Shown piece by piece: positions 14,659-53,298 of a stretch of DNA of 64,000 nucleotides. The notes under the pieces were generated by a model, which saw nothing but the letters and a program-made list of their open reading frames with translations, was not told where the DNA came from and ran no database searches. The stretch's first letter is position 1. Each line of letters starts with the position of its first letter. Origin of the DNA: a phage; assembly GCA_032986305.1 (NCBI GenBank), contig GCA_032986305.1_3672.1. One strand, 5' to 3'. The translations under genes were made by a program, and so were the position numbers.

Positions 14659-14662
14659 TTGT

Positions 14663-17531: not shown

Positions 17532-17543
17532 ACATTAATTCTA

Positions 17544-17567: not shown

Positions 17568-17582
17568 GATCTGGAGATTTGC

Positions 17583-31500: not shown

Positions 31501-31517
31501 ACAGGTTAATAATATAT

Positions 31518-31687: not shown

Positions 31688-32307
31688 GTCATTCGTTTGC
31701 ATAGTTGCCTTATTGTTACGGATAAAATAATTGTATTGTTAATTATTTCTTATCTTTCTCTTAGTCATCTAATGATTCCAGTCAGTATAGTAATGTACAG
31801 TAAACATTAGACGACTAAATATTTCTCTGATTATAGTAACCTATCGTGACAATTTCGGACTGTTTACGAAAAATGTTGACACCTGGGCAGGTTTATGTTA
31901 TGCAGTTTGTACGAATAATTATTTTATACAGGTATTGACTATTCCGTTATTCTGTGGTTGGAATAAATACTTTGCAGGCTATAGAATGATGTTCGTACGT
32001 GAATTCTGAGATCTGTCGGCTATAGTTACACCCGATTTTTCACGTAGGACACGCTTTTTGGTTTGTGTAAGTGTATGACTTATAAGGGTTTTTAATTGTT
32101 GACAGTATGCTGAAAATGTGCATCAGGTTAAATTTTGTGCAATAGCTGCATTACGTGCGTTTTTGGAAGGAAAAACGTGTAAAAATGACCCTGCTACCAC
32201 AAGATGAAAGATTATGCAATAGTTATTTTATATGTATATTTGTACAGTGTGCGGGATTAATGGCTCGTCAATTATTCCACTTGCCAGGTAGGGCCGTTTA
32301 TGGTAGG

Positions 32308-32344
32308 AAAAGAGCAAACAAAAAGAAAGGGGCCTAAGCCCCTT
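32308..32344 (-). terminator. rho-independent terminator (minus strand; potentially bidirectional)
   Basis: AAGGGGC-ctaa-GCCCCTT with U-run on minus strand, immediately downstream of minus gene stop at 32356. Confidence 0.55.
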
Positions 32345-32355
32345 GATAATGTTTA

Positions 32356-32703
32356 TTATTTGTTTCTCATCCAGCTTTCCCAAGCTGCCTGATAATCTGC
32401 CTCACTGCGGCGGATCTCTTCTTGCTCTTCAAGCCGGATCTCTTCTTCCAGGTACCCCAGGATATCAGCCTTTTTGGTCTGGCGTAACATCCAATCATCT
32501 TTTTTACGAGTAAAGATCTTGTACGCTTTCTCGCAAACCTCCTTTTTACTACCTTTTTGGACTTCAATAACTTTGTAGGCCATGTACTGAACTAGTTTGA
32601 GCTGATCAAGGCGTTTCATGATGTTTTCCTCTTTATGGGGTTCTGGTTTGGTGGGCCTTTTGGCCCGTGTCATTATCTTATTACTTACGGCGGCAAAATT
32701 CAA
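32356..32703 (-). CDS. hypothetical protein
   Basis: 115-aa ORF followed by terminator. Confidence 0.45.
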   Translation of the reverse strand: MNFAAVSNKIMTRAKRPTKPEPHKEENIMKRLDQLKLVQYMAYKVIEVQKGSKKEVCEKAYKIFTRKKDDWMLRQTKKADILGYLEEEIRLEEQEEIRRSEADYQAAWESWMRNK

Positions 32704-32953
32704 GTGTTTTTAATTGATAATCTTCTTCAGCCTGAAGTACAACCGCTTCAATCATTTCGTTGGCATTGTTGAAGCCATACCCTTGAGCGAACTCATCCGC
32801 GCCACCTTTGTGATCATGTTCTGCGTTCATCGCTTCCACAAAATGGAATTCAAGATTATTGAGGTAAGGGCTTGATGTTCCGTCCTCTTTTTCGATGAGA
32901 TCCCAGATAGCATTAAAACGTGATTCAACTTTTTGATTAATCCAGCTTGACAT
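32681..32953 (-). CDS. hypothetical acidic protein
   Basis: Own promoter (TTGACA-17-TAACAT at 33008-33036) and 5' UTR hairpin. Confidence 0.45.
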   Translation of the reverse strand: MSSWINQKVESRFNAIWDLIEKEDGTSSPYLNNLEFHFVEAMNAEHDHKGGADEFAQGYGFNNANEMIEAVVLQAEEDYQLKTLEFCRRK

Positions 32954-33062
32954 AATGTTTTCCTCTCTTCTGGTTGTTGTGTGGGCACTTTTGCCCCTTC
33001 AAGATAAATGTTACCTAACCACCTGGCAGATGTCAACTGTTTTTATAGTTTTTATATAACGG

Positions 33063-33100
33063 GCACCCCCGGTGATTGTCTCCCCCCCGTCGCCAGGTGC
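33063..33100 (-). repeat. conserved GC-rich element (GGGAGACAATCACCGGG-GTGCCCGTTAT), copy 3
   Basis: Reverse-complement match to elements at 41484-41520 and 41625-41660; here just upstream of a minus-strand promoter. Confidence 0.5.
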
Positions 33101-33156
33101 CACCCGTGAGATAAGTATAACAAAAAACAGGACCATTGCAAGCCCTGTTTATTATC

Positions 33157-33291
33157 TTAAAACCAGTTGCCAACCGTTTCCAATAGATCACTGACTATCA
33201 GGACAATACTGATCAGCACATACCTAACCATAAAGGGAAAGATCGCCAACATTGCCGCCACGATCCCTATGGTGATAATTATCTTTCTCAT
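33157..33291 (-). CDS. small membrane peptide (44 aa)
   Basis: Hydrophobic; followed by hairpin plus U-run terminator (33117-33150). Confidence 0.3.
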   Translation of the reverse strand: MRKIIITIGIVAAMLAIFPFMVRYVLISIVLIVSDLLETVGNWF

Positions 33292-33381
33292 GTTTTTGTA
33301 TTCTCTTTCTGTTGCGTTCAAGGCGGTCACCGCCGCCTGCTTATGCTTTGTTAGTTAATGGGGCGTACGGTATAGATTAAA

Positions 33382-33597
33382 CTATGCTGTACGCTCAACT
33401 ATAACAACGGCTTGAGGGATCTCACCTTCCACCACTATCAAGGCTTTTTTCTGCGTGATAGATATCTTTACCCGCTTCAGCGTGGCGGTAAAATCTTTCA
33501 TTTCGTCACGTGGTGTTTTAGTGCAATACCAGATCTCAGGCTTACCTATTTGCAAGCCGCGTAAAAATTCCGTTTTGCCTGTTTTGTTCGTGATCAT
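33382..33597 (-). CDS. hypothetical protein
   Basis: SD GGTG before ATG 33597. Confidence 0.4.
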   Translation of the reverse strand: MITNKTGKTEFLRGLQIGKPEIWYCTKTPRDEMKDFTATLKRVKISITQKKALIVVEGEIPQAVVIVERTA

Positions 33598-33607
33598 TTG
33601 TTTCACC

Positions 33608-33712
33608 TTACCCGATACCGTGGGGAGATAGGATCATGTTAGCCATAGTTGCAACCACTCCAACCGATAATGCCATGCCAACTACTACAACCGTGAAAAT
33701 TTTTTCTAACAT
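33608..33712 (-). CDS. small membrane peptide (34 aa)
   Basis: SD GAGGGTGG; hydrophobic. Confidence 0.3.
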   Translation of the reverse strand: MLEKIFTVVVVGMALSVGVVATMANMILSPHGIG

Positions 33713-33784
33713 GATTCCACCCTCATTAATGGGCGTTGCCTTATTGCCCCGCCCTATGTCGTACACTTTTCTTCTGATCCTCTG

Positions 33785-34048
33785 TTAGCATACGATAGCG
33801 ATCACGCCGCCACAAATAAAAGGTAAATCAAAACGGTCTACCTTGCAAGCTATTTTTAAACGAAAGGCAACATAAAAGAAAAGTTGCAAACAATCGATCA
33901 TTGTGTTAGCTGTTGAAACACTGCCAGCATTAAACACCACCCCGCCCACGGCGTTAAACGTTGCGTTACTCACGAAAGCGAAAAGGCAAGCGATCACGGT
34001 GGCGATCATGATGTTGCGTTTTGTCAATCTGTAAATGATGTTTTTCAT
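33785..34048 (-). CDS. small membrane protein
   Basis: Two predicted TM segments. Confidence 0.4.
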   Translation of the reverse strand: MKNIIYRLTKRNIMIATVIACLFAFVSNATFNAVGGVVFNAGSVSTANTMIDCLQLFFYVAFRLKIACKVDRFDLPFICGGVIAIVC

Positions 34049-34118
34049 TCTGTCATGTTGGCGGCATCGCTGCCGCCTTATGTATTATGCTTTGTAAGAT
34101 GGCTGTTGTCAAACTATT

Positions 34119-34298
34119 TTAACGATAATCATCGTACGCTTTATTAACCTGGCGGATATAACATTCAAAAGCCAGATCAATGGATTTATATTCACGGGTA
34201 TATTCACCATAGGAAACTACATACATTTCTATAGCTTCCTCATATGCGAGGAGAATAGAATCCAAGCCTACGATCTCAGTCTTTGCAATAATAGCCAT
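34119..34298 (-). CDS. hypothetical protein (59 aa)
   Basis: SD GAGGATAAAA; own promoter TTGACA-16-TAATAT and 5' UTR hairpin GGGGC-aacaa-GCCCC. Confidence 0.35.
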   Translation of the reverse strand: MAIIAKTEIVGLDSILLAYEEAIEMYVVSYGEYTREYKSIDLAFECYIRQVNKAYDDYR

Positions 34299-34373
34299 GA
34301 TTTTTTATCCTCTTTGTGGTTGGTGGGGCTTGTTGCCCCCTTGATTTATATATTACAGTCTTATATGGTCATG

Positions 34374-34607
34374 TCAACTATTTTCAAAAAATTTTTCTGC
34401 TGTGATATTCTTCCCGGTAGGGTTCGCTACTTTCAAAATTTTATCATGCACTGGACGCCCAAAAGAATAAGCGCCGTACACAGTAAACCAATAATCGCCG
34501 TCAGGTTGTACTATTACTGCCGCATATGGTACGCCTTTTTCGTTTTTGCTGACAGAATAGATCACGTTGCCATTAATAGCCTCGGCGCGTTTAATTTGTT
34601 CCATCAT
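34374..34607 (-). CDS. hypothetical protein
   Basis: 77-aa ORF. Confidence 0.4.
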   Translation of the reverse strand: MMEQIKRAEAINGNVIYSVSKNEKGVPYAAVIVQPDGDYWFTVYGAYSFGRPVHDKILKVANPTGKNITAEKFFENS

Positions 34608-34662
34608 GATGATTTGCCTCTCTTTATTTTCATAATTGGGGGCCTTTTCGGCCCCGCCAGGT

Positions 34663-34947
34663 TTATTTATTGATAGCGTGCAGCGGGAAAGGTACGCCAG
34701 GTTGATAGATAACTTTTACAACCTCATCAGGGCAAAAGAAGTTGCAGAACTCACCGCAATAGGCCTCATCCTCTTTCAACTCTTCATCAACATACTCAAA
34801 AAAGTAGTCGATGCTTGGATAATCTTGCCCTGGGTTATAGTCAACCATTGTCAGGACTAGTTCAAGATCGTTGCGTAGGATATGCATACCCGCTTTTAAG
34901 TATTTTGCTTCCATTTCTACTACATCGCCAACGGTAACAATAGCCAT
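34663..34947 (-). CDS. hypothetical acidic protein
   Basis: SD GGAG; 94 aa. Confidence 0.45.
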   Translation of the reverse strand: MAIVTVGDVVEMEAKYLKAGMHILRNDLELVLTMVDYNPGQDYPSIDYFFEYVDEELKEDEAYCGEFCNFFCPDEVVKVIYQPGVPFPLHAINK

Positions 34948-35172
34948 GATTTTAACTCCTATCTATCCGGTTAATGATTGGGGGCCGCCCCCCTGACACG
35001 TCCTATTATCCATATTGTAGGGCTTGATGCAAGTACTTCTTTAAAAATTTTTTAAGCGCCTTGGGGGCCGCTGTAGCGCCAAAATAATAAAGGCCATGCA
35101 ACCGCATAGCCTTTATGTGATTATATCGCTGCAGGCCCTGCCATGGGCCTTATTTTGCATCATTTGCTGGAA

Positions 35173-35493
35173 TTATTCAGAGAAAACATCGTTCACAATA
35201 GCGATCACAATGCCGCCCACCTTGTCACGGTCAACAATGCACAAATCACCATAGATCATGTGGTAGTCTGGATGATCTTTCACGGAATAGTCAATGAGTG
35301 TTTTCTTATCGTCCAGCTTCGTAACTTCCATTCTCATAACGATATGAGAATCATCAAAGGCATTATTGCGAAAAGTCATAGCCTGACCGCCAGGGCACCC
35401 GGTGATCTCCACTTCCACACCGTCTACGATCTGACCATCAAAGAAATAAAGATTATTGGCGGGTATAAACATGATCATTACTCCTTTTTGCAC
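35173..35493 (-). CDS. hypothetical protein
   Basis: SD AAAGGAG; preceded by palindromic element. Confidence 0.45.
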   Translation of the reverse strand: MQKGVMIMFIPANNLYFFDGQIVDGVEVEITGCPGGQAMTFRNNAFDDSHIVMRMEVTKLDDKKTLIDYSVKDHPDYHMIYGDLCIVDRDKVGGIVIAIVNDVFSE

Positions 35494-35514
35494 TGATTAT
35501 TTTAACAGGGTTTA

Positions 35515-35567
35515 AATTTACTTTATTGATGGCCTTGGAGTCAAGGCCATCTAAAAATAAATTTTAC
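35515..35567. repeat. about 50-bp repeated intergenic element with 24-bp perfect palindrome GATGGCCTTGGAGTCAAGGCCATC (copy 1)
   Basis: Near-identical copies at 39235-39287 and 39827-39876. Confidence 0.6.
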
Positions 35568-35764
35568 AGGCCTACAATCTCTTTGATTCGTTTTACTGCT
35601 GCCTCAGCGCCTTGAGGGTAGAAATTATGATAACCAATCACGCGGGTAATACTGATCGCCGCTTGGTGGTCCTCGTAGTCGCCTTTGAATATTTCTTGAC
35701 CATCAACCAGCACAGCAATTTTTTCTTCTTTTTTGAAGTTAATAACGCGGATATTGTTGCTCAT
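35564..35764 (-). CDS. hypothetical protein
   Basis: SD AAAGGAGAAA. Confidence 0.4.
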   Translation of the reverse strand: MSNNIRVINFKKEEKIAVLVDGQEIFKGDYEDHQAAISITRVIGYHNFYPQGAEAAVKRIKEIVGL

Positions 35765-35859
35765 TTTGTTTCTCCTTTGGAACTTTGTCTGTGTGGTGGG
35801 GAGTGTCTCCCCGTTGATTGTTATTATCCATATTCAGGACCGGATTGCAACACCCCGGA

Positions 35860-35905
35860 AGAAAAATTTTTTTGAAAAAAGTTAGGCCCCCAGGGATCGG
35901 GGGCC
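35860..35905 (-). terminator. rho-independent terminator (minus strand)
   Basis: GGCCCCC-agggatc-GGGGGCC; U-rich on minus strand. Confidence 0.5.
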
Positions 35906-35909
35906 GTTA

Positions 35910-36029
35910 TCAGGTGCGTACAGCGATAAAATACATCCCTACGCCTAACAATATTTCAAGGGCGATAATCTCCAGCCATACCATAACACGGCGCGCCTTA
36001 TCGGTGCGGGGCTTATCCTTGGGTGTCAT
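35910..36029 (-). CDS. small membrane peptide (39 aa)
   Basis: Hydrophobic C-terminal half; followed by terminator. Confidence 0.3.
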   Translation of the reverse strand: MTPKDKPRTDKARRVMVWLEIIALEILLGVGMYFIAVRT

Positions 36030-36049
36030 CGTCTCCCCCTTTCCTCCTG

Positions 36050-36271
36050 TTAGTAGTGACGTGGTTTACAATGGTCCCCAGGAGTACTATCGCCACGCAC
36101 ATTACGAGAAAAATTATTTCTTCCGTTGTTCGGTCCATTGTTATAAAACCTCTCAAGATCAGGTCTAAAAGTAAATCTTTCGTTATTGAATCCGTCACGC
36201 CAGGCGGCTGGCTTCAAATCTTCACTAAATGGATTAATTAACGTGGCATTATTTAAACGGTTGGCCCACAT
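36050..36271 (-). CDS. hypothetical Asn-rich protein
   Basis: SD GAGAGG before ATG 36271. Confidence 0.3.
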   Translation of the reverse strand: MWANRLNNATLINPFSEDLKPAAWRDGFNNERFTFRPDLERFYNNGPNNGRNNFSRNVRGDSTPGDHCKPRHY

Positions 36272-36620
36272 ATTTTCTATTCCTCTCAAATAGGCGATCC
36301 GCCTCAGTTAAACATATCTCATGGGCGTGATCTCTGGTTTTAGCTTCATCGAAAACCTGTTGTGCAAGGCTGCAACGTAGGGAGACTGGAAGATCACTAT
36401 AATAGGCGTTGACAAACGTTTGAGCGTCGTACAGGTCTGAAAATACTTTACCCTTTCTATTATTTCCCTTGTCAACAATTGCAAGGATAACCAATACAAT
36501 AGTTGCAACCACCCCCAGGAAAATAGATATAATAAACCATAAAAAGGCGGATCTCCCCATCTTGCCAGCGATCCAGGCGTTAAACAAGGCAACCAATATA
36601 GCCAAAATAATAAATTCCAT
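36249..36620 (-). CDS. membrane protein
   Basis: SD AAGAGG before ATG 36620; two TM helices. Confidence 0.4.
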   Translation of the reverse strand: MEFIILAILVALFNAWIAGKMGRSAFLWFIISIFLGVVATIVLVILAIVDKGNNRKGKVFSDLYDAQTFVNAYYSDLPVSLRCSLAQQVFDEAKTRDHAHEICLTEADRLFERNRKYVGQPFK

Positions 36621-36684
36621 TCTATGTACCTCTTTTACAGTTCTGATTAACAATAAGGCGGCAAATATGCCGCCTGTTACCTGA

Positions 36685-37065
36685 TTAAAAATTATCGCCG
36701 TAAATCTTTCCGCTTTCTACCCATACCACCACGCGAGGCATACTATCCCACACGTCTTGTTTTAGATTGAGCGCGTGCAATTCTTCGGTGGTGCTCATAC
36801 CGGGCACGGGCTGATTGTATACTGCAAAACGACCGCCTGCATAATCATAGGCCAGGGTTAAATCACACTGGATCATCTTTTTGATCATGGCATTAAGCAT
36901 GGCGTTAGCCGCATATTGATCACGTTTTAAAGGCAACTCTTTGATTAGTTTGCGATAGTTTTCGATATGGTCGCACACTGTTTCACGAGGAAGATCTTTC
37001 ATATCCTCGCGAAAGGTAACCAGGTTAAACATAACGGTGTCAATGGCCTTGGTAGTGTTTTTCAT
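36685..37065 (-). CDS. hypothetical protein
   Basis: SD GAGAGGA before ATG 37065. Confidence 0.45.
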   Translation of the reverse strand: MKNTTKAIDTVMFNLVTFREDMKDLPRETVCDHIENYRKLIKELPLKRDQYAANAMLNAMIKKMIQCDLTLAYDYAGGRFAVYNQPVPGMSTTEELHALNLKQDVWDSMPRVVVWVESGKIYGDNF

Positions 37066-37154
37066 AATGTTATCCTCTCTGTTTTGTGTTGGGCAAGTCA
37101 TCTCGCCCCTTGAGTTTTAATATAGCAGGTTTTTAGATTATTGCAACACTTTAT

Positions 37155-37778
37155 TTATGAAAAACTCATCTCCCCATATTCATCCACATCAAACCGCCAA
37201 TCATTGGCTTCAATAAGGCCGATCAGGTTTTCGGTAGTAAACTGTTCAAGATAGGCCCCCTCCAGGTCTACGTAAACCTTGCGGGATAGCTCCCGTACCG
37301 TCTCGGTGATCAGCTCTTCCAGCTCTTCAACTTTATCCTCTTGCTTGGTGGTCAGGTCTAGCCAATTAGTATCGATGCACCCTCCTATTGTGTTTTCGTG
37401 GTGATAATGGCTAAACGGGATACGTTCAACACTAGCTGATAACTCGCCATCGTGCATTGTGCCGAACAAGTGACGAATTGATCGGAACTTGGTCAGGGCC
37501 TTGACTTTACGCAAGAATTTTTCTAAATCCACGTTTTCAGCACTGATTGACGCGCCATCGCCTTGACACCAAAAGCCGGACCAACGTACTTCGGTATCTT
37601 CAAGGCCGTACTCTGGAAAGACATATTCTTTATAGTGTTCAATTACGCTTTCTGCAAAAAAATTATCCCCGCTGTGTTCTTCTCTTTCGCGTACCATTTC
37701 AATGGCTTTTTCTTTTTGTTCGTCGGTCAGCACATCGAAAGATAAATTGTAACCTGTGGTAATGTTAACGGTGGTCAT
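37155..37778 (-). CDS. hypothetical acidic protein
   Basis: 207 aa, strongly acidic; SD AGGAGAAAAT. Confidence 0.45.
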   Translation of the reverse strand: MTTVNITTGYNLSFDVLTDEQKEKAIEMVREREEHSGDNFFAESVIEHYKEYVFPEYGLEDTEVRWSGFWCQGDGASISAENVDLEKFLRKVKALTKFRSIRHLFGTMHDGELSASVERIPFSHYHHENTIGGCIDTNWLDLTTKQEDKVEELEELITETVRELSRKVYVDLEGAYLEQFTTENLIGLIEANDWRFDVDEYGEMSFS

Positions 37779-37799
37779 GATATTTTCTCCTGTTTTCTT

Positions 37800-37864
37800 T
37801 GTTAGTGGCGGGAAGTTTTCCCGCCTGTGTGTTTAATTATACTTATTGAGATTTACTTGTCAAC
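37800..37864 (-). promoter_or_regulatory. promoter (TTGACA-16-TATAAT) plus 5' UTR hairpin GGCGGGAA/TTCCCGCC cassette
   Basis: Minus-strand consensus hexamers at 37858-37863 and 37836-37841; palindrome 37807-37825. Confidence 0.55.
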
Positions 37865-38113
37865 ACTATTTTTTAAATTATTGTGGCGCAAAATGTTTAA
37901 AATCTCTTCAACGTCATCAACACGGCGGCAATTTTTAAACGCTACCAATTGCCCCATGATTTTAATCACTGGGCGGCCTTGCCAGTGCCCTTGGAGAAAG
38001 CGCGCCTTGACTTTATCGGTGGAACTATCACGCCACCAAATAGCCTTGTTGTTGCAGTAGTAAAAATTATTCAGGATAACATCAACTTTATCAAAATTTT
38101 TTAATTTACGCAT
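37853..38113 (-). CDS. hypothetical protein
   Basis: SD AAGGAG. Confidence 0.45.
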   Translation of the reverse strand: MRKLKNFDKVDVILNNFYYCNNKAIWWRDSSTDKVKARFLQGHWQGRPVIKIMGQLVAFKNCRRVDDVEEILNILRHNNLKNSVDK

Positions 38114-38292
38114 GGCGTTTACTCCTTCCTCTCTTTGATGTGGTTAGTATAGCTAACCTGTTGACGATGTCAATGATATTTTTAACGCCATAAAACGGCC
38201 CTGGGCGATGTTTTCAGGTTAAAGGGGGCGATTGCATAGGTGGGGGCCTTTTTGGCGCTTACAGGGCCAACCAGGGGCGCTATTCGTATGAT

Positions 38293-38323
38293 AGAAATAA
38301 AAAGCCCCGCACAATGGCGGGGC
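38293..38323 (-). terminator. rho-independent terminator (minus strand)
   Basis: GCCCCGC-acaatg-GCGGGGC then U-run on minus strand. Confidence 0.55.
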
Positions 38324-38331
38324 GTTGGTTG

Positions 38332-38529
38332 TTATTTGTCTTTATGGCGGTATCGTTCTGCCTGTCGTTCACGTTCCAAAAGTAGGCCGGGCAATTTACG
38401 ATCATAATGATTACGCCAGATCTTCCCAAACCTTTTTGGCTTATTCAGTTTATTGTTACGCTGGCGGCGTTCTGGCAGCTCTTCGGAATCATGAGGGCGC
38501 TTTACAATTTTCTCGAAATTAATTTTCAT
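38332..38529 (-). CDS. small basic protein
   Basis: Arg/Lys-rich 65 aa; terminator immediately downstream. Confidence 0.4.
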   Translation of the reverse strand: MKINFEKIVKRPHDSEELPERRQRNNKLNKPKRFGKIWRNHYDRKLPGLLLERERQAERYRHKDK

Positions 38530-38873
38530 ATATTCCCCCCCTTGCTAACTTCAATATTGGCCTGAATAGCTCGGATACGGCGCTTTATAACTTCCTGATC
38601 TGTGTGGTCGTATCCCCAAAAGTCTACAATTTTTGCGCCCCCCGCCTCCAGGCGGTATAGTGTTTCCTGCATTTTGTAAGCCGGGATCGGGCGCGGTGTT
38701 ACTTGGTCACCTTCTTTATTTTTATACTTTATAATATAATCTTCGTTATCGTTGAATGCCCAAAATGGATATTCTGCAAGGGCGGTACTTCCTCTTTCCT
38801 TTTTATCCTGGATCTTATTTACAATTAAAGCCGTAGCAATAGCGCCAATAATAAAACTAGCCCCGCTAATCAT
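38526..38873 (-). CDS. membrane-anchored protein
   Basis: N-terminal TM helix. Confidence 0.45.
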   Translation of the reverse strand: MISGASFIIGAIATALIVNKIQDKKERGSTALAEYPFWAFNDNEDYIIKYKNKEGDQVTPRPIPAYKMQETLYRLEAGGAKIVDFWGYDHTDQEVIKRRIRAIQANIEVSKGGNI

Positions 38874-38949
38874 GTGTACTTTCTCCTTTCATGGTGTTAA
38901 TAAATTATCTTTATAGATGGCCCTGCAACCAGGACCACCGAAAAAATAA

Positions 38950-39195
38950 CTATTTCACAATGCCTACAAAACAGATCCCGCCTTCACCTATGTAAGCAAT
39001 ATCGGTAACTTTATAATTTGTCAAGATCTGTTTATTTAGTTCATTAATAAAATCGGTCATTGCGTTGGTGTAGTTGTCTTCCATATCTAAGGCATAATCC
39101 CAGGCGTAAACCTTTTTACGTCCGAAGCCTTTTACCATGATACGGGCGCTTTTGGTGTTGGTGGGCGCATAATATTTTGTGATTAGTGCTGCCAT
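38950..39195 (-). CDS. hypothetical protein
   Basis: SD GAGGAG. Confidence 0.45.
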   Translation of the reverse strand: MAALITKYYAPTNTKSARIMVKGFGRKKVYAWDYALDMEDNYTNAMTDFINELNKQILTNYKVTDIAYIGEGGICFVGIVK

Positions 39196-39234
39196 GGTTT
39201 TAACTCCTCATTAGTTCAGTGTTAACAGTGTAAA

Positions 39235-39287
39235 GTTTACTTTATTGATGGCCCTGGAGTCAAGGCCATCTAAAAATAAATTTTACT
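39235..39287. repeat. repeated palindromic intergenic element (copy 2)
   Basis: gatggccctggagtcaaggccatc with one mismatch in stem. Confidence 0.6.
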
Positions 39288-39594
39288 CGTTTTCTTCCAG
39301 CTCTGTCTGCAATTCCTGGTATTCTTCATCGTCCTCAATATCCAGGCTGTCGATGTAGTCGCTAAATCCGCAGCGGTAAGCGATAGGATCTAACTCCTTG
39401 AGGATACGCGACGGAAGAAAAGAAATGTTTCCGATCATAATTTCGCCGTAGATCTCGTCTAGCCATTCGTCATAGTTTTCGTCGTACTTGTCCTCGTCGA
39501 TTTCAAAGTTATCGATCTTGTTCTCAAGGTCTGCGATCTGTTTTTTCAGCGCGGCGATCTGCATAGCTTTTTCTGCGGCGGTCATAGTAGTCAT
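39283..39594 (-). CDS. hypothetical acidic protein
   Basis: SD AAAAGGAGAAA; Asp/Glu-rich. Confidence 0.45.
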   Translation of the reverse strand: MTTMTAAEKAMQIAALKKQIADLENKIDNFEIDEDKYDENYDEWLDEIYGEIMIGNISFLPSRILKELDPIAYRCGFSDYIDSLDIEDDEEYQELQTELEENE

Positions 39595-39675
39595 GGTGTT
39601 TTCTCCTTTTGTGTGTTCTGGGAAGTTTTCCCGTTTACGTGTTTAAGTATACCGATTTGGGTTAGCTTGTCAATT
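39595..39675 (-). promoter_or_regulatory. promoter (TTGACA-16-TATACT) plus 5' UTR hairpin cassette
   Basis: Same architecture as 37800-37864. Confidence 0.5.
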
Positions 39676-39793
39676 AAAAATTTAAGAAAAATTTTGCAAA
39701 ACTGTTGGCGCTACTCATTAACATTTGCGCCAGGATGTAACCGACAACGCAAACGATAATAGTTACCTTTGTGTATTGGCGTGTAGTGCTCAT
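39674..39793 (-). CDS. small membrane peptide (39 aa)
   Basis: SD GGGGG; hydrophobic. Confidence 0.3.
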   Translation of the reverse strand: MSTTRQYTKVTIIVCVVGYILAQMLMSSANSFAKFFLNF

Positions 39794-39826
39794 CTTAAAG
39801 CCCCCTTTTCGCTTAGTTGAGACTAG

Positions 39827-39876
39827 TTTACTTTATTGATGGCCCTGGAGTCAAGGCCATCTAAAAATAAACTTAA
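39827..39876. repeat. repeated palindromic intergenic element (copy 3)
   Basis: Identical core to copy 2. Confidence 0.6.
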
Positions 39877-40277
39877 TAAGTTTTCAGTACTTTACCGTCC
39901 AACCTGTCAAGCTGGATCTCAATAGCTGCAGAAAACCTATTGTACACCACGTCGCCCATAGAATCCAACCAATCTATGACGTTATATACCTGCTCTTTAT
40001 TCTTACAGGTCCGGATCCGTTTCATGATGTAAGCCGGATCAATATTGGTACTCTCGTTGGTGTTCCCCTGTACCTGGTTTGCCGTATTAGTTACATCTTT
40101 AATGGCCTTTACCACCACCTGGAATGGCTTTAAGGTGCCTTTTGCGTTCATCTCACGCGCTTTTGCGGCGCGGTTGTTATATGTTACACAACGGCGGCAA
40201 ATATTGATCAAATGCATGTCAATAATTTTTTCATCGTTTGCCAACTCGTTCATGATGCGGCGTACGTTCTTATTCAT
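39873..40277 (-). CDS. hypothetical protein
   Basis: 134 aa; own promoter/hairpin cassette at 40278-40352. Confidence 0.45.
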   Translation of the reverse strand: MNKNVRRIMNELANDEKIIDMHLINICRRCVTYNNRAAKAREMNAKGTLKPFQVVVKAIKDVTNTANQVQGNTNESTNIDPAYIMKRIRTCKNKEQVYNVIDWLDSMGDVVYNRFSAAIEIQLDRLDGKVLKTY

Positions 40278-40352
40278 GGTCTTTTTCCTTTATGTTGGCG
40301 GGAAACATTCCCGCCTTTTGTGCCCAGTTTACTTGAATTTTGCAGCGTGTCA
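40278..40352 (-). promoter_or_regulatory. promoter (TTGACA-16-TAAACT) plus 5' UTR hairpin GGCGGGAA/TTCCCGCC
   Basis: Palindrome 40296-40314, SD AAGGAAAAAG. Confidence 0.5.
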
Positions 40353-40359
40353 ACAATTT

Positions 40360-40758
40360 TTATTCATGGGCGCATGTTACAATGTGCTTTTTATAGCCCA
40401 GGCGGTCAGCAAGTGCCGACAAAAACTCTTCTTCGTAGATCCAGCCGTCGGCAGTGATCCCCATAGTATTTAATGCGCTCTCAAGTGCTGCGTTGGCCTT
40501 ATCATAACCGTGACCGCTCGCCTTGCCGCCAGTATAGCCGTACTTATTGTTCTTGTTGTCGTGTATCCAAAAAACGCAGTAGTAAGTGTTCCCGCTGGCG
40601 GCGGCATAGTACCGGATCTCCGCTACTTCGTGCAAATTATTATCATCGTCCAGGCCAACCAGATTATAAGCCTTGTAAAATCCACGATCACGGCGGCAAT
40701 TTTTAACATCAGAAAAAGAGAAGTCGGCATTGTCAAAATTAAAGGTTGTGGTTTTCAT
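40360..40758 (-). CDS. hypothetical protein
   Basis: SD GAGAGGATAAA. Confidence 0.45.
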   Translation of the reverse strand: MKTTTFNFDNADFSFSDVKNCRRDRGFYKAYNLVGLDDDNNLHEVAEIRYYAAASGNTYYCVFWIHDNKNNKYGYTGGKASGHGYDKANAALESALNTMGITADGWIYEEEFLSALADRLGYKKHIVTCAHE

Positions 40759-40822
40759 GATTTTATCCTCTCAGTGTCTTTTTTGATTTCAGTATATTTT
40801 GTGTCAGGCCATATGTCAATAC

Positions 40823-41020
40823 TTATTTTTTATTAAACCAGTGGTTGATCTGGCCTTTTGTCAGGGCGCAACGATTAAGTTGGTGCCGTGTATAGCTCTG
40901 ACCGCGACGGAATTTATAAAGGCCTTGCCCGTTGTTGATGGTTACATCCACCCGGCAAACCATTTGATCGGTGACCACCTGGCGAGTGTTGCGACGTACT
41001 TTGATTCCGTAGGCGTTCAT
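40823..41020 (-). CDS. small basic protein
   Basis: SD AGAGAGGATAAAAAAT. Confidence 0.4.
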   Translation of the reverse strand: MNAYGIKVRRNTRQVVTDQMVCRVDVTINNGQGLYKFRRGQSYTRHQLNRCALTKGQINHWFNKK

Positions 41021-41105
41021 GATTTTTTATCCTCTCTGTTAATTGGTGTGGTGTTGTTCACCTTGCGAGGATAAGAATAACAATAACTGTACGAGCTGTC
41101 AACCA

Positions 41106-41282
41106 TCAGTTAAAATTATTTTTTGGGTAGAATTCTCCAGCCGCCGCCCCTGCCAGGTTAACCATCATTTTTTCGTACTCTTCTTTATGTTCCAACGCTC
41201 CCGCCATAGCCTTTTCAACCAGGGCGATAGCCTCAGCGTCATTAATAGCTACATTTTCCAGGGGGATCATGTTACCTTTCAT
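41106..41282 (-). CDS. hypothetical protein (58 aa)
   Basis: SD AGGAGG before ATG 41282; below track threshold. Confidence 0.4.
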   Translation of the reverse strand: MKGNMIPLENVAINDAEAIALVEKAMAGALEHKEEYEKMMVNLAGAAAGEFYPKNNFN

Positions 41283-41440
41283 TTTTGTACCTCCTCTTCA
41301 ATTGTTACCTATCCTATAGCATAGGCCCACCAGGTTTGCAAGCCTTCATTCTCTCCTACCTGGTCAGTTAGGTCCTACCAGGCTGGCCCCGCCAGGTTGC
41401 AGCGGTTAGCGCATCAGGTTAGAAAATTTTTTTGAAAAGT

Positions 41441-41580
41441 GTTGACAGCGGCCCAGCCAGGTGGCACAATATACCTATCGAAAGGACGGCAGGCACCGGT
41501 GACGGGGGAGACAACCACCGGGGATGGGCGCTGCATAAAATGAGAACGGTTATCATTATCCTTTAAAAATTTATGCAAAA
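41441..41580 (+). ncRNA. candidate small RNA unit 1 (promoter TTGACA-17-CACAAT plus structured GC-rich transcript)
   Basis: No ORF; contains conserved element GGGAGACAACCACCGGGG and GAGAACGGTTATCATT. Confidence 0.35.
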
Positions 41581-41589
41581 ATCCTTGCT

Positions 41590-41720
41590 TTCTTTGTCCT
41601 GTGTGATACTATAATAACAAGCCGGGGCAACAGGGGCCGGGAGACAATCACCGGGCCTGCCCGTTATTCTGCAAACGAGAATGATTATCATTCAAAATTC
41701 TAAATGAGAACTCCTCGCAT
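41590..41720 (+). ncRNA. candidate small RNA unit 2 (promoter TTGCTT-16-TACTAT plus structured transcript)
   Basis: Paralogous to unit 1: GGGAGACAATCACCGGG ... GAGAATGATTATCATTC (AU hairpin). Confidence 0.35.
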
Positions 41721-41814
41721 TTAATAAATTTAATTAGCATGCTAATTACCCTCCGTAACAATTTCCTATAAAACAGTATCCCATAAAATATTCCCATACA
41801 GAAATTTTAAAAAT

Positions 41815-41990
41815 CCATTTCTGAAAACGAAAAATCGATTTCGTCCCCAAAAATTTCAGGTCGAGATCCGGAACGATTTCTAGAAAATCCGATTTAGAAA
41901 ACGAAAAACAGATCGAGTACTGAGAAATTTATCGAGAAAAATTTTCAGAAAATTCAATCTTTGAAACGAAAAACAGATCGAGTACCTGGA
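41815..41990. repeat. tandem direct repeats (about 66-73 bp period) containing GAAAACGAAAAACAGATCGAGTAC
   Basis: Three copies at about 41824, 41897, 41963. Confidence 0.55.
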
Positions 41991-42298
41991 AAGCTGCACT
42001 GCAACTTCAAGATAGTGGTTAGATTATTACCATAGAAGGTCAAGGGTAAGTGGAGGAAGTTCTAGTAGAAGGATGTGAGCATGTGTGGGAAATCTGTAAT
42101 GGTGGCCTGAAATATGGTGCAAACGATAGGATGAGTGATTCAGCTTGTCGCGCCTACTCTGAAAAAATCCATTTTAGTTTTCGATCCATTTTCTGATTTT
42201 CTAAGGATTTTAAAATATCCGGCCCGGTGAAATATCAAAAGGAGGAAATCCATTTTAGAAATCCCCCTTATACTTGATATGCCAGGAATTTTCAAGTA

Positions 42299-50601: not shown

Positions 50602-50868
50602 TAGTTCAGGTAGGTCGTTAAGCTACCCCGCACCATTACGTGCATAGCCATACGTTTTCACGTAGGATCGGACCATCTCATATTCCTATGATAAGCAACC
50701 ACAGGAATCCTCCCATTTCGACCGCACTTGCTGGTCTACTTCCTTTCGGAATGGCCTCTGAGCGTTCGCTCTTTTGAGCGCTTCGTTGCGGATTACCTTG
50801 CCATAAGGTTTAGGCTTCCCGCAGTTAAAGAGGTTATTCGACATAGATTACTCTATGAAGCCACAATG

Positions 50869-53298
50869 TTATTTATGGTAATAAATAATACGACGAACAC
50901 CTTCATCGTACCACCCACGCTTCACCATTTGGTGGTGCATGAGTATCCCAACTAAGTCACACAGCGATGCACCACCATTCTGTTGGTATGCATTAAGTAA
51001 AGAGTGTTTAGATCGGGTCCAGATGGCATGACCATCAAAAGAGTAGATAAACTTCTTACCCGTTGCTTCCCAGAATTTCTCCAGATCCTCTTTACGCCCC
51101 TTAAGACCAGGGTTGGCATCCCAAAGTGCATCGATTACCCTTTGTCCCAACTCTGGAGAGATGTCCAGCATATCTGCAACTTTATCTTTTTGTGCCCCGT
51201 ACATAACCCCATACGTGATAGGTTTACCGTCGTTACGGGACACCTCTCTGCCTGCTACTTTTGTATATGCCTCAGCATTGTTTTGGTGTGCGTCTCCGTT
51301 ACTTACAACATCGTAATACAGGCCGTTGTCGAACTCAAAGGCACCCCAAGCCCCGATAAGCTGCTCTAAGTTGGACCCGTCGATACCGATCTCAAAGTAT
51401 CCTGGAGGAACACCCCACAAGCTACGCATCTCTTTACCCATAACCACTTTAGGAGAGGGTTTAGGCATGTTTGCACAAATACTGTGTTTCTGTCTGGAAG
51501 TGTTTGTTAATCCAGAGCTTTTAGCAGGAAGCTTATGGTCAATCTTCAAGCGTGGGTGATTAAGAAGACCAGTATCAACCTTATCCTCCTTGATCGGATC
51601 AAGGACCGATCTGCGGTTTCGCAATGATAACCACAAGACGATATCTTTAGCCATCTCTCCGTTCAATTTTTCAAGATTCGGACATAGGTGTCCAAACGTA
51701 TCTTTCAGTTGCGGAGAAGTAATAAGTGCCCTAGCTTTTCTACGTATTTTCCTGAATACTTCCTTTTTAATCCTTTCGGAGTTAGGAAAGCTTCGGAACT
51801 TGTGCACAGTTGTCTGGAACTTAGCATCAGTTTTGTTCCAGAAGTTGATAATTAGGTCACAATACTCTGACTCCAAAAGCTCGTCCATATATGCATATAC
51901 TCGTGCATCAACATCTGCATCAGGTAAAGCTTTCTTCTTGCTGTCTTTAGTTACATCCTTAGTTCTCCACATTGTCGGAAGCCAGCCAGCACTGATCAGG
52001 TATCGCTTAATGTCGTCCTGGTTGCTGATTTTCATAGGTATCTTGCAGTCCGGCATTCGCTTCTGCTGTAGATCACTTATTGCCTGATCCATCAACTCTT
52101 TAGGTAAAGGGTGTGGTGTGGAAGTGCCCTTAATATAGCCTCTCAAGAAATCAGCCATCTTATCGGGGTCTTTGCATCCCATCTCTTCACACCATTTTAT
52201 CCCCATCTTGCTGACATCTCCTGTAGAGGTAAATGCTCTCTTAGGCGGGGCTTTGAACTCTAAAGCGCTCATGTCTACAGGATATCCAAGCTTATCTTTT
52301 AACCATTTCCAACCATTATTAGAGATTGTCCCGTCTTGGTTAAACGGCTTTTCAGGGAACTTGGGCCGCTGAGACATTGACAGCTCTTTTAAAGGCAGTT
52401 GTGGTTCAACACGATCAGCGATTTCTTTCATCCACGCATCGCAACGGTCACGTAAAGCAATAGCTCCATCTATGTCGAAATATACGCCCTGACGGGCCTG
52501 CAGCTCCATCAGGAAGTGCTGCAGCATACCTCGGCGCAATGCGTTCTTCCAGGTGATCTTCTTGAACCCTTTTGGCTTCTCTTTGGCAGGATCGTACATA
52601 AAGTTCTGCATGTCAGATTTGCCGTAGAATACACCTTTTGATTCCGCTACCAGCTCTTTCCAGAGCAACTCCTGGATGATAACGTCCTCGAATACACGAT
52701 CCACATACTTCCACAACGGAAGATCGCGCCAGTCATCAATTTGAACTTTCTGGTTACCAAGGGCGTAGCCCCATGCCATAAGGCCGTGAGGACCAACAGG
52801 CTGCATTTTCTTAGTAACCGGGTTGAATACAGCGTCCGGACAACCTTTTGGTAAAGGGCGATCAGGCCACAAGATTCGGCTCATCGCCAACGTATCAAAC
52901 AGGTTAACCTGGTGGTCGTTGATAGTCCCCATACATTTAGGATCACGGAACATATCAAAATGAATACCGGATAATCTCTCCATCAGCATAAAGTCATAAC
53001 TATAGCAGTTATGGCAGTTCAAAGCTGTTGGTGACCAGTCGGAATTGCCTGTAAGCCAACCTTCCAACTCCGAAAAATCTGCTATGCGAACTTCAAAATC
53101 TTTATAAAGAGCTTTCTTTGCCAGAATAAAGTTCTTAGCCTTCTCTATATCCTCCTCGGAGTAGTGTGTGCGGTCATTTAGAGGGAGGAACAGCATAAAA
53201 CGGTTCTTATTCAGCTCTTTAAACAGGCCGCAGTGATAATAAAGATCTGGGTCTTCCAAAAGCCCGGAGGCCTCAAAATCGAAGCTATACATGCTCAT
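50869..53298 (-). CDS. family A DNA polymerase (T7 gp5-like) with 3'-5' exonuclease domain
   Basis: Exo I FDFEASGL; motif A GIDGSNLEQL (cf. T7 DASGLELR); motif B RNDGKPITYGVMYG; SD AAGGAG. Confidence 0.75.
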   Translation of the reverse strand: MSMYSFDFEASGLLEDPDLYYHCGLFKELNKNRFMLFLPLNDRTHYSEEDIEKAKNFILAKKALYKDFEVRIADFSELEGWLTGNSDWSPTALNCHNCYSYDFMLMERLSGIHFDMFRDPKCMGTINDHQVNLFDTLAMSRILWPDRPLPKGCPDAVFNPVTKKMQPVGPHGLMAWGYALGNQKVQIDDWRDLPLWKYVDRVFEDVIIQELLWKELVAESKGVFYGKSDMQNFMYDPAKEKPKGFKKITWKNALRRGMLQHFLMELQARQGVYFDIDGAIALRDRCDAWMKEIADRVEPQLPLKELSMSQRPKFPEKPFNQDGTISNNGWKWLKDKLGYPVDMSALEFKAPPKRAFTSTGDVSKMGIKWCEEMGCKDPDKMADFLRGYIKGTSTPHPLPKELMDQAISDLQQKRMPDCKIPMKISNQDDIKRYLISAGWLPTMWRTKDVTKDSKKKALPDADVDARVYAYMDELLESEYCDLIINFWNKTDAKFQTTVHKFRSFPNSERIKKEVFRKIRRKARALITSPQLKDTFGHLCPNLEKLNGEMAKDIVLWLSLRNRRSVLDPIKEDKVDTGLLNHPRLKIDHKLPAKSSGLTNTSRQKHSICANMPKPSPKVVMGKEMRSLWGVPPGYFEIGIDGSNLEQLIGAWGAFEFDNGLYYDVVSNGDAHQNNAEAYTKVAGREVSRNDGKPITYGVMYGAQKDKVADMLDISPELGQRVIDALWDANPGLKGRKEDLEKFWEATGKKFIYSFDGHAIWTRSKHSLLNAYQQNGGASLCDLVGILMHHQMVKRGWYDEGVRRIIYYHK

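Follow-up and report, generated by a model that had tools for sequence, protein, structure and literature searches.

At the primary replication origin of phage T7, which lies some 15% into the genome counted from the left end, the tandem promoters phi1.1A and phi1.1B precede an AT-rich segment, and lambda-type iteron origins combine four initiator sites of 19 bp, intrinsic bending and a neighbouring AT-rich region with activation by transcription. In T4, oriF and oriG are each made of a promoter and an A+T-rich unwinding element, and oriE combines an early promoter with iterons (PMC3016281). The injection-stop signal of T5 occupies a 1.2-kb untranslated region, 7.9% from the left end, in which repeats and palindromes keep an order that is better conserved than the ORFs on either side; one element occurs again elsewhere in the first-entering DNA (10.1101/866236). 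Phages of the rV5 type and related groups (Vequintavirinae, Stephanstirmvirinae) rank among the candidates most often used against E. coli, Klebsiella, Salmonella and Cronobacter in therapy and biocontrol. In the rV5 genome paper, skew analysis found no origin and a 'non-coding' box was left unexplained, and in the literature on rV5, Vequintavirinae, PVP-SE1 and phi92 (origin, repeats, transcriptomes) we found no description of the element presented here.

The window, by which we mean the whole 64-kb stretch of DNA that was analysed (64,000 nucleotides), comes from a Vequintavirus (rV5-like) infecting E. coli. Amid one long block of minus-strand genes it contains a 1,016-bp gap, 41283-42298, in which rightward promoters with promoter-proximal hairpins, Fur-box-like palindromes, a three-unit array, a variable spacer and a cluster of CCATTT and AAATATC words follow one another (Table 1). 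The gap separates two gene blocks of the same (minus) strand, and a new leftward promoter, PL, forms its left edge, back-to-back with P1; an equivalent minus-strand promoter is found at the left gap edge in other genera. Only two ORFs overlap the region, of 48 aa (GTG start) and 51 aa (TTG start), and both fall in the most variable part, where relatives differ by 1- and 2-nt indels; there is no conserved ORF in the array. The flanking proteins of the gap have no Pfam match, and the window contains no tRNA genes.

Table 1. Coordinates of the features of the gap in the window
Feature	Position	Strand	Sequence and basis
Leftward promoter PL	41313..41341	-	TTGCAA-17-TATAGG; serves the 58-aa gene 41282-41106; direct reading
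Promoter P1	41442..41470	+	TTGACA-17-CACAAT; consensus scan 10/12
Promoter-proximal hairpin, copy 1	41488..41535	+	loop GAGACAACCA; folding
Palindrome A	41540..41556		ATGAGAACGGTTATCAT
Promoter P2	41585..41612	+	TTGCTT-16-TGaTACTAT (extended -10); direct reading
Promoter-proximal hairpin, copy 2	41625..41662	+	loop GAGACAATCA; fold z-score -2.1
Palindromes B and C	41675..41720		B ACGAGAATGATTATCAT, C ATGAGAACTCCTCGCAT; B matches the Fur consensus at 15/19
Perfect 18-bp palindrome	41731..41748		TAATTAGCATGCTAATTA; in AT-rich stretch between palindromes and array
Array unit 1	41792..41853	+	A/T tract GAAATTTTAAAAA, word ATCCATTTC, core GAAAACGAAAAATCGATTTCG at 41823-41843
Array unit 2	41866..41927	+	word AAAATCCGATTT, core GAAAACGAAAAACAGATCGAG at 41897-41917, then TAC
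Array unit 3	41931..41992	+	A/T tract GAAAAATTTTC, core TGAAACGAAAAACAGATCGAG at 41962-41982, then TAC
Variable spacer	41993..42158		70-79% identical in genus, indels
Right-end cluster	42159..42262	+	ATCCATTTT at 42167, 42184, 42248; AAATATC at 42213, 42230

The array is built on a 21-nt core, GAAAACGAAAAANNGATCGAG, for which a pattern search allowing up to 3 mismatches returned three matches, all on the plus strand, against 0.03 expected; none of 100 shuffles reached three, and the three cores are the only good matches in the 139-kb genome of the relative FFH2. The copies are not identical, the first ending in ...GATTTCG and not GATCGAG, and the third reading GAAACG, with one A fewer. A repeat search extends the cores to three 62-nt units with 61-76% identity and a spacing of 74 and 65, which Tandem Repeats Finder misses because their identity lies below about 70%; its output at the array is a 12-nt micro-repeat at 41925-41952 only. 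Each unit carries the box GAAAAYGAAAAA-NN-ATCGAGNAC, which partly forms DNA palindromes (TCGATCGA), and on the minus strand TCGATAAATT spans the junction of units 2 and 3 (41926-41935). Two other identities of the repeats were considered and rejected. The 61-76% identity of the repeats and the conservation of the inter-repeat sequence itself, A/T tracts included, across genera speak against a CRISPR array, and neither a consensus scan nor direct reading found a convincing -35/-10 pair on either strand that would make the units sigma-70 promoters.

The first-pass annotation had described an ORF-free region between minus-strand blocks, and on both points its description holds. The three core copies that it listed are real, although two of the starts, 41824 and 41963, are one base off (41823 and 41962) and the spacing of about 66-73 bp is computed as 74 and 65. 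Likewise AAATCCATTT does recur, with exact occurrences at 41811, 42165 and 42246, of which 42165 had been placed correctly and the others at 41816 and 42244; the first copy runs on as ...TTTC and not ...TTTT. The stretch that it recognised covers only the right half of the module, and the antisense promoters, hairpins and palindromes on the left had been missed.

Comparison with related phages found the region conserved. Within the genus the array is 88-98% identical, no less conserved than the flanking genes; per 50 bp its identity is 0.96, 0.88 and 0.98, against 0.90-0.95 for those genes. With the array of 4MG as query, relatives were recovered at 70-81% identity across the subfamily, and the parts of the module follow the same order in Mydo-, Seuna-, Certre-, Henuna- and Phapecoctavirus. 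Three units in the same orientation are present in Mydo-, Seuna-, Certre- and Henunavirus and in the IMG/VR lineages L141 and L142, and at least six genera retain the three-unit design; in L139 there are four shorter units and in L147 two copies 143 apart. The three units are not interchangeable, since unit-specific features are kept across genera. Their spacings vary (74+65, 67+74, 67+76, 63+78), yet from first to last unit the distance remains 138-145 bp, different repeat sequences included, and the Phapecoctavirus-like L143 has an unrelated repeat sequence with a spacing of 75+67. The identity within the genus, together with a three-unit design in at least six genera, argues for a cis-acting control site at the gap array, an interpretation that we regard as well supported, and the shared design indicates that the module is older than the split of the genera.

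The array also stands out in its composition. No other part of the window has as high an A/T-tract content (34%; median 6%), its AA/TT periodicity of 10.5-11 bp falls in the top 0.5-2%, and GC drops to 0.30 at 41663-41862, the lowest value outside the terminal region; GATC is 3-fold enriched in four of five genera. The extreme A-tract content and phasing would suit a bent array that, together with the word clusters, binds a nucleoid-type or phage protein (H-NS, Fis, Fur or other) with no role in replication, the bound protein silencing or timing the antisense promoters P1-P3. The window's only perfect TCGATAAATT, a high-affinity motif of H-NS, lies in the array; when one mismatch was allowed, the motif was not enriched. 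The two best matches of the window to the 19-bp Fur-box consensus are likewise both in the gap, one at 16/19 (the 19-mer 41542-41560, overlapping palindrome A) and the other at palindrome B. These likenesses to Fur and H-NS sites are consensus matches only, and we consider a purely regulatory or boundary role somewhat unlikely.

Upstream of the array, every genus has plus-strand promoters of the sigma-70 type that are antisense to the genes. In the window, P1 has a TG extension and an A/T-rich upstream tract and reads rightward into the array, in the opposite sense to every flanking gene; it is 97-98% identical within the genus, and an equivalent plus-strand promoter is present in 6/6 other genera scanned. 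P2, directed rightward as well, is nearly invariant in the genus, and although it fails the tool's consensus scan in the window, its positional homologue passes in Mydo-, Seuna-, Certre- and Henunavirus. A further promoter, P3, lies directly before unit 1 in Mydovirus and Seunavirus (scan) and in Henunavirus and L142 (direct reading). The activity of these promoters is a prediction.

Of the two hairpins, copy 1 has a loop motif with only three occurrences in the 139-kb FFH2 genome, and copy 2 alone, of all parts of the gap, is picked up by BLAST in other genera (distant blastn matches). RNAalifold on a MAFFT alignment did not recover the stem, and independent single-sequence folds were used instead; for 13 homologues of copy 2 these give the same architecture with different outer-stem sequences. 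In lineage L137/L152, RNA1 is found by itself, with a terminator of its own. In scans of viral contigs, an 18-mer from RNA1 proved specific; the matches of an exact 15-mer were mostly chance hits in unrelated contigs and were set aside. No homologue of the promoter and hairpin region occurs in E. coli genomes, and a search of the plasmid collection yielded nothing but a mis-filed phage genome.

Since these neighbouring elements are clearly RNAs (a covarying hairpin, and RNA1 with its terminator), and with promoters directly upstream, P3 abutting unit 1 in several genera, the array might itself be transcribed from P2 or P3 as a non-coding RNA, whose unstructured A-rich repeats would titrate an RNA-binding protein such as Hfq or the ribosomal protein S1. 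The plus strand of the array is indeed A-rich and predicted to be unstructured, folding of both strands in two genera giving z-scores of -0.67, -0.77, -1.59 and -0.27, none of them significant. We nevertheless give this proposal little credence. No terminator could be detected after the array on the plus strand by scan or direct reading, and the AnTn tracts, helical phasing and fixed span of ~141 bp are properties of duplex DNA; the box, too, forms DNA palindromes in part. The Phapecoctavirus-like repeats, replaced in sequence with their spacing kept, are also hard to fit with a sequence-specific RNA ligand. Rfam, searched at gathering and permissive thresholds with the window and five relatives, returned no family for the gap, the best match in or near it (E = 0.19) being far under the cut-off.

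Between the promoters and the array, the palindromes form a family with the consensus ATGAGAATnATTCTCAT, present in 1-5 copies in most other genera and absent from L139, and the 18-bp palindrome is conserved in the genus except for the central T/C. In FFH2 the palindrome family clusters at two places only, the gap and the terminal repeat; these shared palindromes, and the hairpins of the gap, hint at roles beyond replication.

On the other side of the array, the variable spacer contains 51 G and 23 C on the plus strand, so its untranslated minus-strand transcript, with 51 C and 23 G, is C-rich and G-poor (rut-like). This composition, along with the position of the gap between same-strand blocks and with PL at its left edge, could be explained by a boundary at which the upstream replication operon is ended by Rho in the spacer and the downstream early genes are restarted at PL. 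Against this, the G-rich spacer is not conserved outside Vequintavirus, and a plain boundary needs neither three units with a fixed span of ~141 bp across subfamilies nor a genome-unique box. At the right end, ATCCATTT has four occurrences in the window, all within the gap (41813 and the three cluster positions of Table 1), and AATCCATTT has only three in the 139-kb FFH2 genome, again all within the gap. Other genera have 2-3 CCATTT(T/C) words ~12 nt apart and then 2-3 AAATATC words; the CCATTT and AAATATC words are spaced 12-18 bp, and AAATATC words are also found beside the physical genome end.

The position of that end bears on two further explanations. For Gotham, another Vequintavirus, terminal repeats of 459 bp were experimentally inferred (PMC7471380), and by homology the 459-bp direct terminal repeat begins at 30823 in the window, which puts 11 kb between this end and the array; the repeat stops about 10 kb short of the gap. 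Measured from the physical left end, the array is at 11.0-11.2 kb in Vequintavirus (8.4% of 137,025 bp) and at 9.0-9.1 kb (6.3%) in Mydovirus KPP-1, whose terminal repeat is in the convergent region and not in the gap. Genome records starting near the gap were considered as a sign of a physical end, but with about 4/249 they are no more frequent than chance and the idea was therefore dropped. The packaging site that had been suggested for this region, which would here be a pac-type recognition site for terminase, is disfavoured by these data: the AAATATC words common to the gap and the flank of the terminus, and GATC-containing repeats that loosely recall the pac site of P1, could be read in its favour, but the termini are defined elsewhere in both genera and the terminase gene is ~57 kb from the array in FFH2. 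With the physical left end 11 kb away, we consider packaging at the gap highly improbable.

The other explanation is a DNA-entry checkpoint like the injection-stop signal of T5. According to it, entry would begin with the left ~11 kb, which is packed with small early genes, and would pause at the repeat region, to resume after early proteins are made or when RNA polymerase from P1-P3 pulls the rest in. The position relative to the left end is similar, although it is not necessarily the first-entering end, and, much as one T5 element recurs in the first-entering DNA, the palindromes and the AAATATC words are found again at the terminal repeat. P1-P3 are moreover inward-pointing promoters in a block of outward-pointing genes, which recalls the A1-A3 promoters of T7. 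For these myoviruses, however, there is no report of entry in two steps, the gap lies outside any long terminal repeat, the repeat being just 459 bp, and it has no DnaA boxes. The FFH2 annotation has no ORF of more than about 207 aa between the left end and the gap, and therefore nothing of the size of T5 A1, which is 556 aa. A link to daunorubicin is circumstantial, as Drexlerviridae are sensitive too. We consider a checkpoint of this kind improbable, and the wider proposal that Vequintavirinae deliver their DNA in two steps, with the left ~9-11 kb of host-takeover genes first and a pause at the module, more doubtful still.

The interpretation that we favour, with a probability of about 40%, is that the array forms the core of a conserved site at which proteins assemble on the DNA, and that this site acts as the primary replication origin of the phage, activated by transcription as in the T7 or T4 oriE-F type. 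Host RNA polymerase would start at the tandem promoters P1 and P2, and in several genera at P3 abutting the array, and rightward transcription, against the neighbouring genes, would enter the most AT-rich and A-tract-dense DNA outside the genome ends. Each ~70-bp unit would supply an intrinsic bend, through its AnTn tract, and a box, and a putative phage or host protein would bind there and wrap some 140 bp of the DNA. Together, transcription and wrapping may then open the duplex or leave an RNA primer, on which the phage replisome of the T7 type, with a family A polymerase, a DnaB-type helicase protein and a Pif1 helicase, could load. The replisome genes are located 9-18 kb to the right of the array, where Pfam matches to DNA_pol_A (below the Pfam cut-off), DnaB_C and PIF1 were found in ORFs at 50.9-59.9 kb of the window. 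In the rV5 paper, gp230 is described as a relative of gp4d-type primase/helicases (PMC3606486). It counts against the model that a fork started rightward from P1/P2 would meet all downstream transcription head-on.

Compared with the two classes of origin, the locus shares with transcription-primed origins promoters that read into an A+T-rich segment and a replisome encoded by the phage. With iteron origins it shares at least three direct repeats of the same orientation, unique to the locus, and an adjacent AT-rich region, but not the close spacing of 12-24 bp or an initiator gene beside the repeats; the unit spacing of 63-78 bp, unlike the about 22 bp of classical iterons, counts against an origin. 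DnaA boxes (TTWTNCACA) are absent from the gap, and other genera have at most one. The sole protein labelled 'replication initiation', ORF72 of FFH2, is a winged-helix-like protein of 116 aa encoded 52 kb away; as an array binder it was rejected, being confined to Vequintavirus (tblastn) and so not co-distributed with an array that is subfamily-wide. At the gap the coding-strand G excess changes from 0.03-0.06 on the left to 0.135 on the right in two genera, which is the wrong sign for an origin of bacterial type and could equally reflect gene class. A symmetric skew domain around the terminus of FFH2 was not reproduced in KPP-1 and is therefore not used as evidence. The origin that the first-pass annotation had suggested thus agrees with the promoters, the AT-rich, bent and unique array and the nearby replisome, and disagrees with the lack of a co-varying initiator and with the sign of the GC skew; protein binding and any replication role are inferred.

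In practical terms, the gap is a compact cis element of roughly 1 kb that is unique in the genome and whose parts are now listed, and phage engineering should leave it intact. Were the T5-like explanation true, delivery of DNA in two steps would no longer be confined to the T5 family.

Like T7, these phages carry short direct terminal repeats on a linear genome, have tandem promoters that lead into AT-rich non-coding DNA close to the left end, and encode a family A polymerase and a DnaB-type helicase protein. Unlike in T7, the promoters belong to the sigma-70 type of the host and run antisense to the genes around them, the AT-rich part consists of three ~70-bp units with specific boxes, and the array lies 6-8% and not 15% from the left end. 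The T4 origins resemble it in having a promoter followed by an easily unwound AT-rich segment, and oriE in particular in combining a host-type early promoter with direct repeats that are conserved in the syntenic regions of relatives and whose role is unproven. The repeats of oriE are 12 nt apart, whereas the units here are about 70 bp apart and form three non-interchangeable units, and the array has no sequence similarity to the T4 origins. With lambda it has in common same-orientation direct repeats, intrinsic bending, an AT-rich neighbour and upstream transcription, but the spacing is three times larger and the array is neither in nor beside an initiator gene. The gap also resembles Repeat Region 3 of the left terminal repeat of T5, an untranslated region of about 1 kb with repeats and palindromes in fixed order (10.1101/866236): in both, conservation of this order exceeds that of the adjacent ORFs, a family of elements reappears closer to the end, and the region lies about 8% from the left end, where it bounds small early genes. 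It differs from T5 in that the gap has no DnaA boxes, which are paired in T5, and is not part of a long (~10 kb) terminal repeat, and in that it belongs to an unrelated phage family with a contractile tail.

Over the 2 kb around the array, the window matches Escherichia phage FFH2 and some 120 further rV5-like phages, which belong to the genus Vequintavirus, subfamily Vequintavirinae, at 97% identity. In FFH2, the equivalent of the gap sits within a long run of small hypothetical genes on the minus strand, with the replication genes upstream on the same strand. The gap spans 1,016 bp between a 58-aa and a 109-aa gene and, as the first-pass annotation had claimed, it is free of ORFs; neither an ORF scan nor the alignment of relatives revealed a conserved one. 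The rV5 genome paper draws a 'non-coding' box without discussing it, did not locate the origin by skew analysis and has no P1/P2-type gap promoters in its promoter table (PMC3606486), and we found no description of the gap element in the published literature. Elsewhere in the window, the DNA polymerase gene region holds a group I intron (Rfam RF00028, 64.7 bits, E = 4e-14); the FFH2 polymerase is annotated as two pieces with an HNH endonuclease in between.

The first-pass annotation had also described a triple repeat and a recurring word. Both hold up, although some of the positions first reported for them are shifted by 1-5 bases and the copies are less perfect than written. Three copies of the repeat are real, with GAAAACGAAAAANNGATCGAG matching three times vs 0.03 expected; the word AAATCCATTT does occur in three exact copies, the one at 42165 having been placed correctly and the others at 41816 and 42244. 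The 62-nt units share 61-76% identity, and a search of the entire FFH2 genome (139 kb) placed both the core motif and AATCCATTT in the gap alone. The array makes up one half of a more extended module, whose parts the table lists in plus-strand order, starting at the left. Both P1 and P2 point rightward, opposite to every neighbouring gene; P1 passes a consensus promoter scan, which P2 fails in the window, P2 being recognized by direct reading and positional homology. Each GGCCCnGCCAGGTnGCA copy corresponds to a GC-rich promoter spacer with CCWGG; the promoter at ~33030 has the same spacer, CCAGGTGG, which may be a hallmark of the early promoters of this phage.

Positions of the gap module and of related features in the window and in other genomes
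Feature	Sequence	Position	Description
Gap	window	41283-42298	
PL	window		leftward promoter, drives downstream gene; leftmost part of gap
GGCCCnGCCAGGTnGCA	window	41324-41466	three copies, 61-65 bp apart
P1	window	(+)	TTGACA-17-CACAAT, then hairpin
Palindrome A	window		between P1 hairpin and P2
P2	window	(+)	TTGCTT-16-TGaTACTAT, extended -10, then second hairpin
Palindromes B and C	window		right of P2 hairpin
AT-rich stretch	window		perfect 18-bp palindrome; between palindromes B/C and array
Array units	window	41792, 41866, 41931	right of AT-rich stretch
GAAAACGAAAAANNGATCGAG	window	41823, 41897, 41962	
AAATCCATTT	window	41811, 42165, 42246	
Variable spacer	window		right of array
Right-end word cluster	window		three ATCCATTTT and two AAATATC words
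Fur-box consensus matches	window	41542-41560, 41677-41695	16/19, 15/19
Hairpin RNA element	window	41488-41535 (+), 41625-41662 (+), 33055-33108 (-)	loop GAGACAAnCA
Promoter with CCAGGTGG spacer	window	~33030	
Group I intron	window	50649-50884 (-)	
Predicted left end	window	30823	Gotham position 1 (BLAST)
AAATATC	window	30602, 30617, 30763, 30866	around cut site
CCTGAAGAG	window	29566, 30214, 30628, 30663, 30746	around cut site
Gap	Gotham	10942-11924	
Array cores	Gotham	11450, 11524, 11590	
RNA1	L008, L010	2307-2400	
RNA1	L011	2317-2410	
RNA1	L012	2319-2405	
RNA1	L137, L152 (IMG/VR)		solitary, own promoter and terminator, no array
Split module	L139 (IMG/VR contig, 146,850 bp)	5000-5460	
Gap match	CP057073.1 (PLSDB, 137,565 bp)	17387-17994	94% identity

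Comparison with related phages, which had been proposed as a check, showed that the array is conserved within the genus and the architecture across genera. Among eight Vequintavirus genomes scored per 50 bp, array identity is 0.96, 0.88 and 0.98, the right-end cluster reaches 0.92 and the P1-P2 region 97-98%; flanking genes show 0.90-0.95 left of the gap and 0.65-0.9 right of it, and the spacer (42000-42150) shows 0.70-0.79 with frame-breaking indels. Five other genera have a gap of about 1 kb, likewise free of ORFs, at the equivalent position in the minus-strand small-gene block: Phapecoctavirus (Mt1B1_P17), Mydovirus (BIS47), Certrevirus (CR3, KaOmega), Seunavirus (4MG) and Henunavirus (Hena1). 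The common order is P1-RNA1, P2-hairpin, palindromes, three units, a variable part and a CCATTT/AAATATC cluster. A third promoter, P3, was identified by promoter scan in Mydovirus and Seunavirus and by direct reading in Henunavirus and the IMG/VR lineage L142, and ATGAGAATnATTCTCAT-type palindromes number 1-5 in Phapecocta-, Mydo-, Certre-, Seuna- and Henunavirus, with none in lineage L139. A search with the 4MG array returned relatives at 70-81% identity in Seuna-, Mydo-, Certre-, Henuna-, Avuna- and Vequintavirus.

From 22 units of eight lineages, the unit consensus is AAAAATTTTTT, about 10 nt, then AAAAAATACGTTTT-GAAAAYGAAAAA-NN-ATCGAGAACC. Unit 2 also carries distinct features, which reappear from genus to genus, and all three units share one orientation in the genera examined. 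Unit spacings are 74 + 65 bp in the window, 67 + 74 bp in BIS47, 67 + 76 bp in 4MG and 63 + 78 bp in CR3, giving first-to-last spans of 139, 141, 143 and 141 bp. The Phapecoctavirus-like L143, with an unrelated repeat sequence, has 75 + 67 bp (142 bp), L147 has two copies 143 bp apart, and Mt1B1_P17, with a middle copy, has 90 + 48 bp (138 bp). That the span stays at about 141 bp despite sequence turnover suggests that the duplex DNA is structurally constrained, for example by wrapping around a protein assembly.

Two further relatives were observed. In L139, the module is interrupted after P2 by ~500 bp of inserted coding sequence; a second hairpin copy follows a new promoter, there are no palindromes, and four shorter units, TGAAAAAGCTATCGAGACC, make up the array. 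CP057073.1, whose source is pooled cattle faeces, is listed as a non-mobilizable E. coli 'plasmid'; it is as long as a Vequintavirus genome and probably represents a phage genome that was submitted as a plasmid.

The hairpin element lies 8-20 nt downstream of a promoter in all three cases, and these are the only copies in the 139-kb FFH2 genome; 13 homologues from several genera keep the fold with differing outer-stem sequences, and no Rfam family matches it. RNA1, a conserved small RNA with the 3' end ...AAGGTKGATCGCCGGTAG, follows P1 in every examined genus except Vequintavirus, and has neither an Rfam match nor an E. coli homologue. The palindrome family core, TGAGAATnATTCTCA, differs by one base per half-site from TGATAATnATTATCA, the Fur 7-1-7 motif.

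The array itself showed no significant RNA structure on either strand in two genera (z = -0.67, -0.77, -1.59, -0.27) and matched no Rfam family. Its A/T-tract content is the highest in the 64-kb window (34% vs a median of 6%), its AA/TT periodicity at 10.5-11 bp ranks in the top 0.5-2%, and GC content outside the terminal region is at its minimum in 41663-41862. From the lack of fold and Rfam signal together with these extremes we conclude that the array works as DNA, and a repeat-bearing non-coding RNA is quite improbable. Arrays from four genera show a ~3-fold enrichment in GATC, and that of Hena1 has none.

The first-pass annotation had offered packaging as one function. For Gotham, a Vequintavirus, 459-bp terminal repeats and a single specific packaging start are reported (PMC7471380); its record opens with the repeat, and by homology the predicted physical left end is window 30823, the start of a 459-bp direct terminal repeat. 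For the Mydovirus KPP-1, coverage and PhageTerm indicated a 514-bp repeat (PMC9862379); it sits in the convergent region, not in the gap homologue, at 9.0-9.1 kb to the left of the array. Both repeats map away from the gap, which argues against a packaging site and makes it a highly improbable reading. The palindrome family and AAATATC words found in the gap recur at the extreme left end. There, the terminal repeat (window 30823-31283) has four ATGAGAATnATTCTCAT-type palindromes in its first 160 bp, and the words around the cut site, which also lie to its left (window 30200-30822), are present in the terminal-repeat region of KPP-1 too.

In Gotham, the distance from the left end to the array is 8.4% of the genome length. 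The T5 injection-stop region, a 1.2-kb untranslated block 7.9% from the left end, has a conserved repeat order and one element duplicated nearer the end (10.1101/866236), a striking likeness in form and position; daunorubicin sensitivity, common to Vequintaviruses and T5-like phages (PMC13250531), is no more than a circumstantial parallel. However, the gap has no DnaA boxes, a long terminal repeat is absent and these phages are not known for two-step DNA entry, and an analogous role would be improbable.

The gap also marks a compositional boundary. Coding-strand G excess is 0.03-0.06 from the left end to the gap vs about 0.135 to its right, with genes on the same strand (window 31300-41282 vs 42299-63999; Mydovirus L155 444-8401 vs 9740-17527), and the drop is significant in Vequintavirus (p = 0.006) and in KPP-1 (p = 0.0006). 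Gene class could cause this change; a mirror-image effect beyond the terminus is present in FFH2 but not in KPP-1.

A regulatory or boundary site, which we regard as somewhat unlikely, would agree with a spacer that in Vequintavirus gives a minus-strand transcript rich in C and poor in G and could be a Rho entry site, with the two best Fur matches of the window, consensus matches alone, falling in the gap, and with the window's only perfect TCGATAAATT, an H-NS-type motif, in the array.

The best fit, with a probability of roughly 0.4, is that the gap module would be a transcription-activated replication origin. Tandem promoters would fire into unique, AT-rich, intrinsically bent repeats near one genome end, and the phage has its own family A polymerase, DnaB-type helicase protein and Pif1 helicase (PMC3606486). 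No initiator adjacent to or co-distributed with the array was found; ORF72, a 116-aa winged-helix-like protein labelled 'replication initiation protein' by PHROGs, was rejected as genus-restricted. The primary origin of T7 and the origins of T4 are the closest precedents for such an origin. In T4, oriF and oriG each combine a promoter with an A+T-rich unwinding element, and oriE has an early promoter with iterons (PMC3016281). The unit spacing of the array (63-78 bp; 90 + 48 in Mt1B1_P17) differs from that of classical iterons, and the skew change at the gap has the opposite direction to that of a bacterial-type origin. If the module is an origin, it would stand out by its antisense promoters of host type, by three units of ~70 bp that keep to a 141-bp span, and by accessory elements common to the gap and the genome end.
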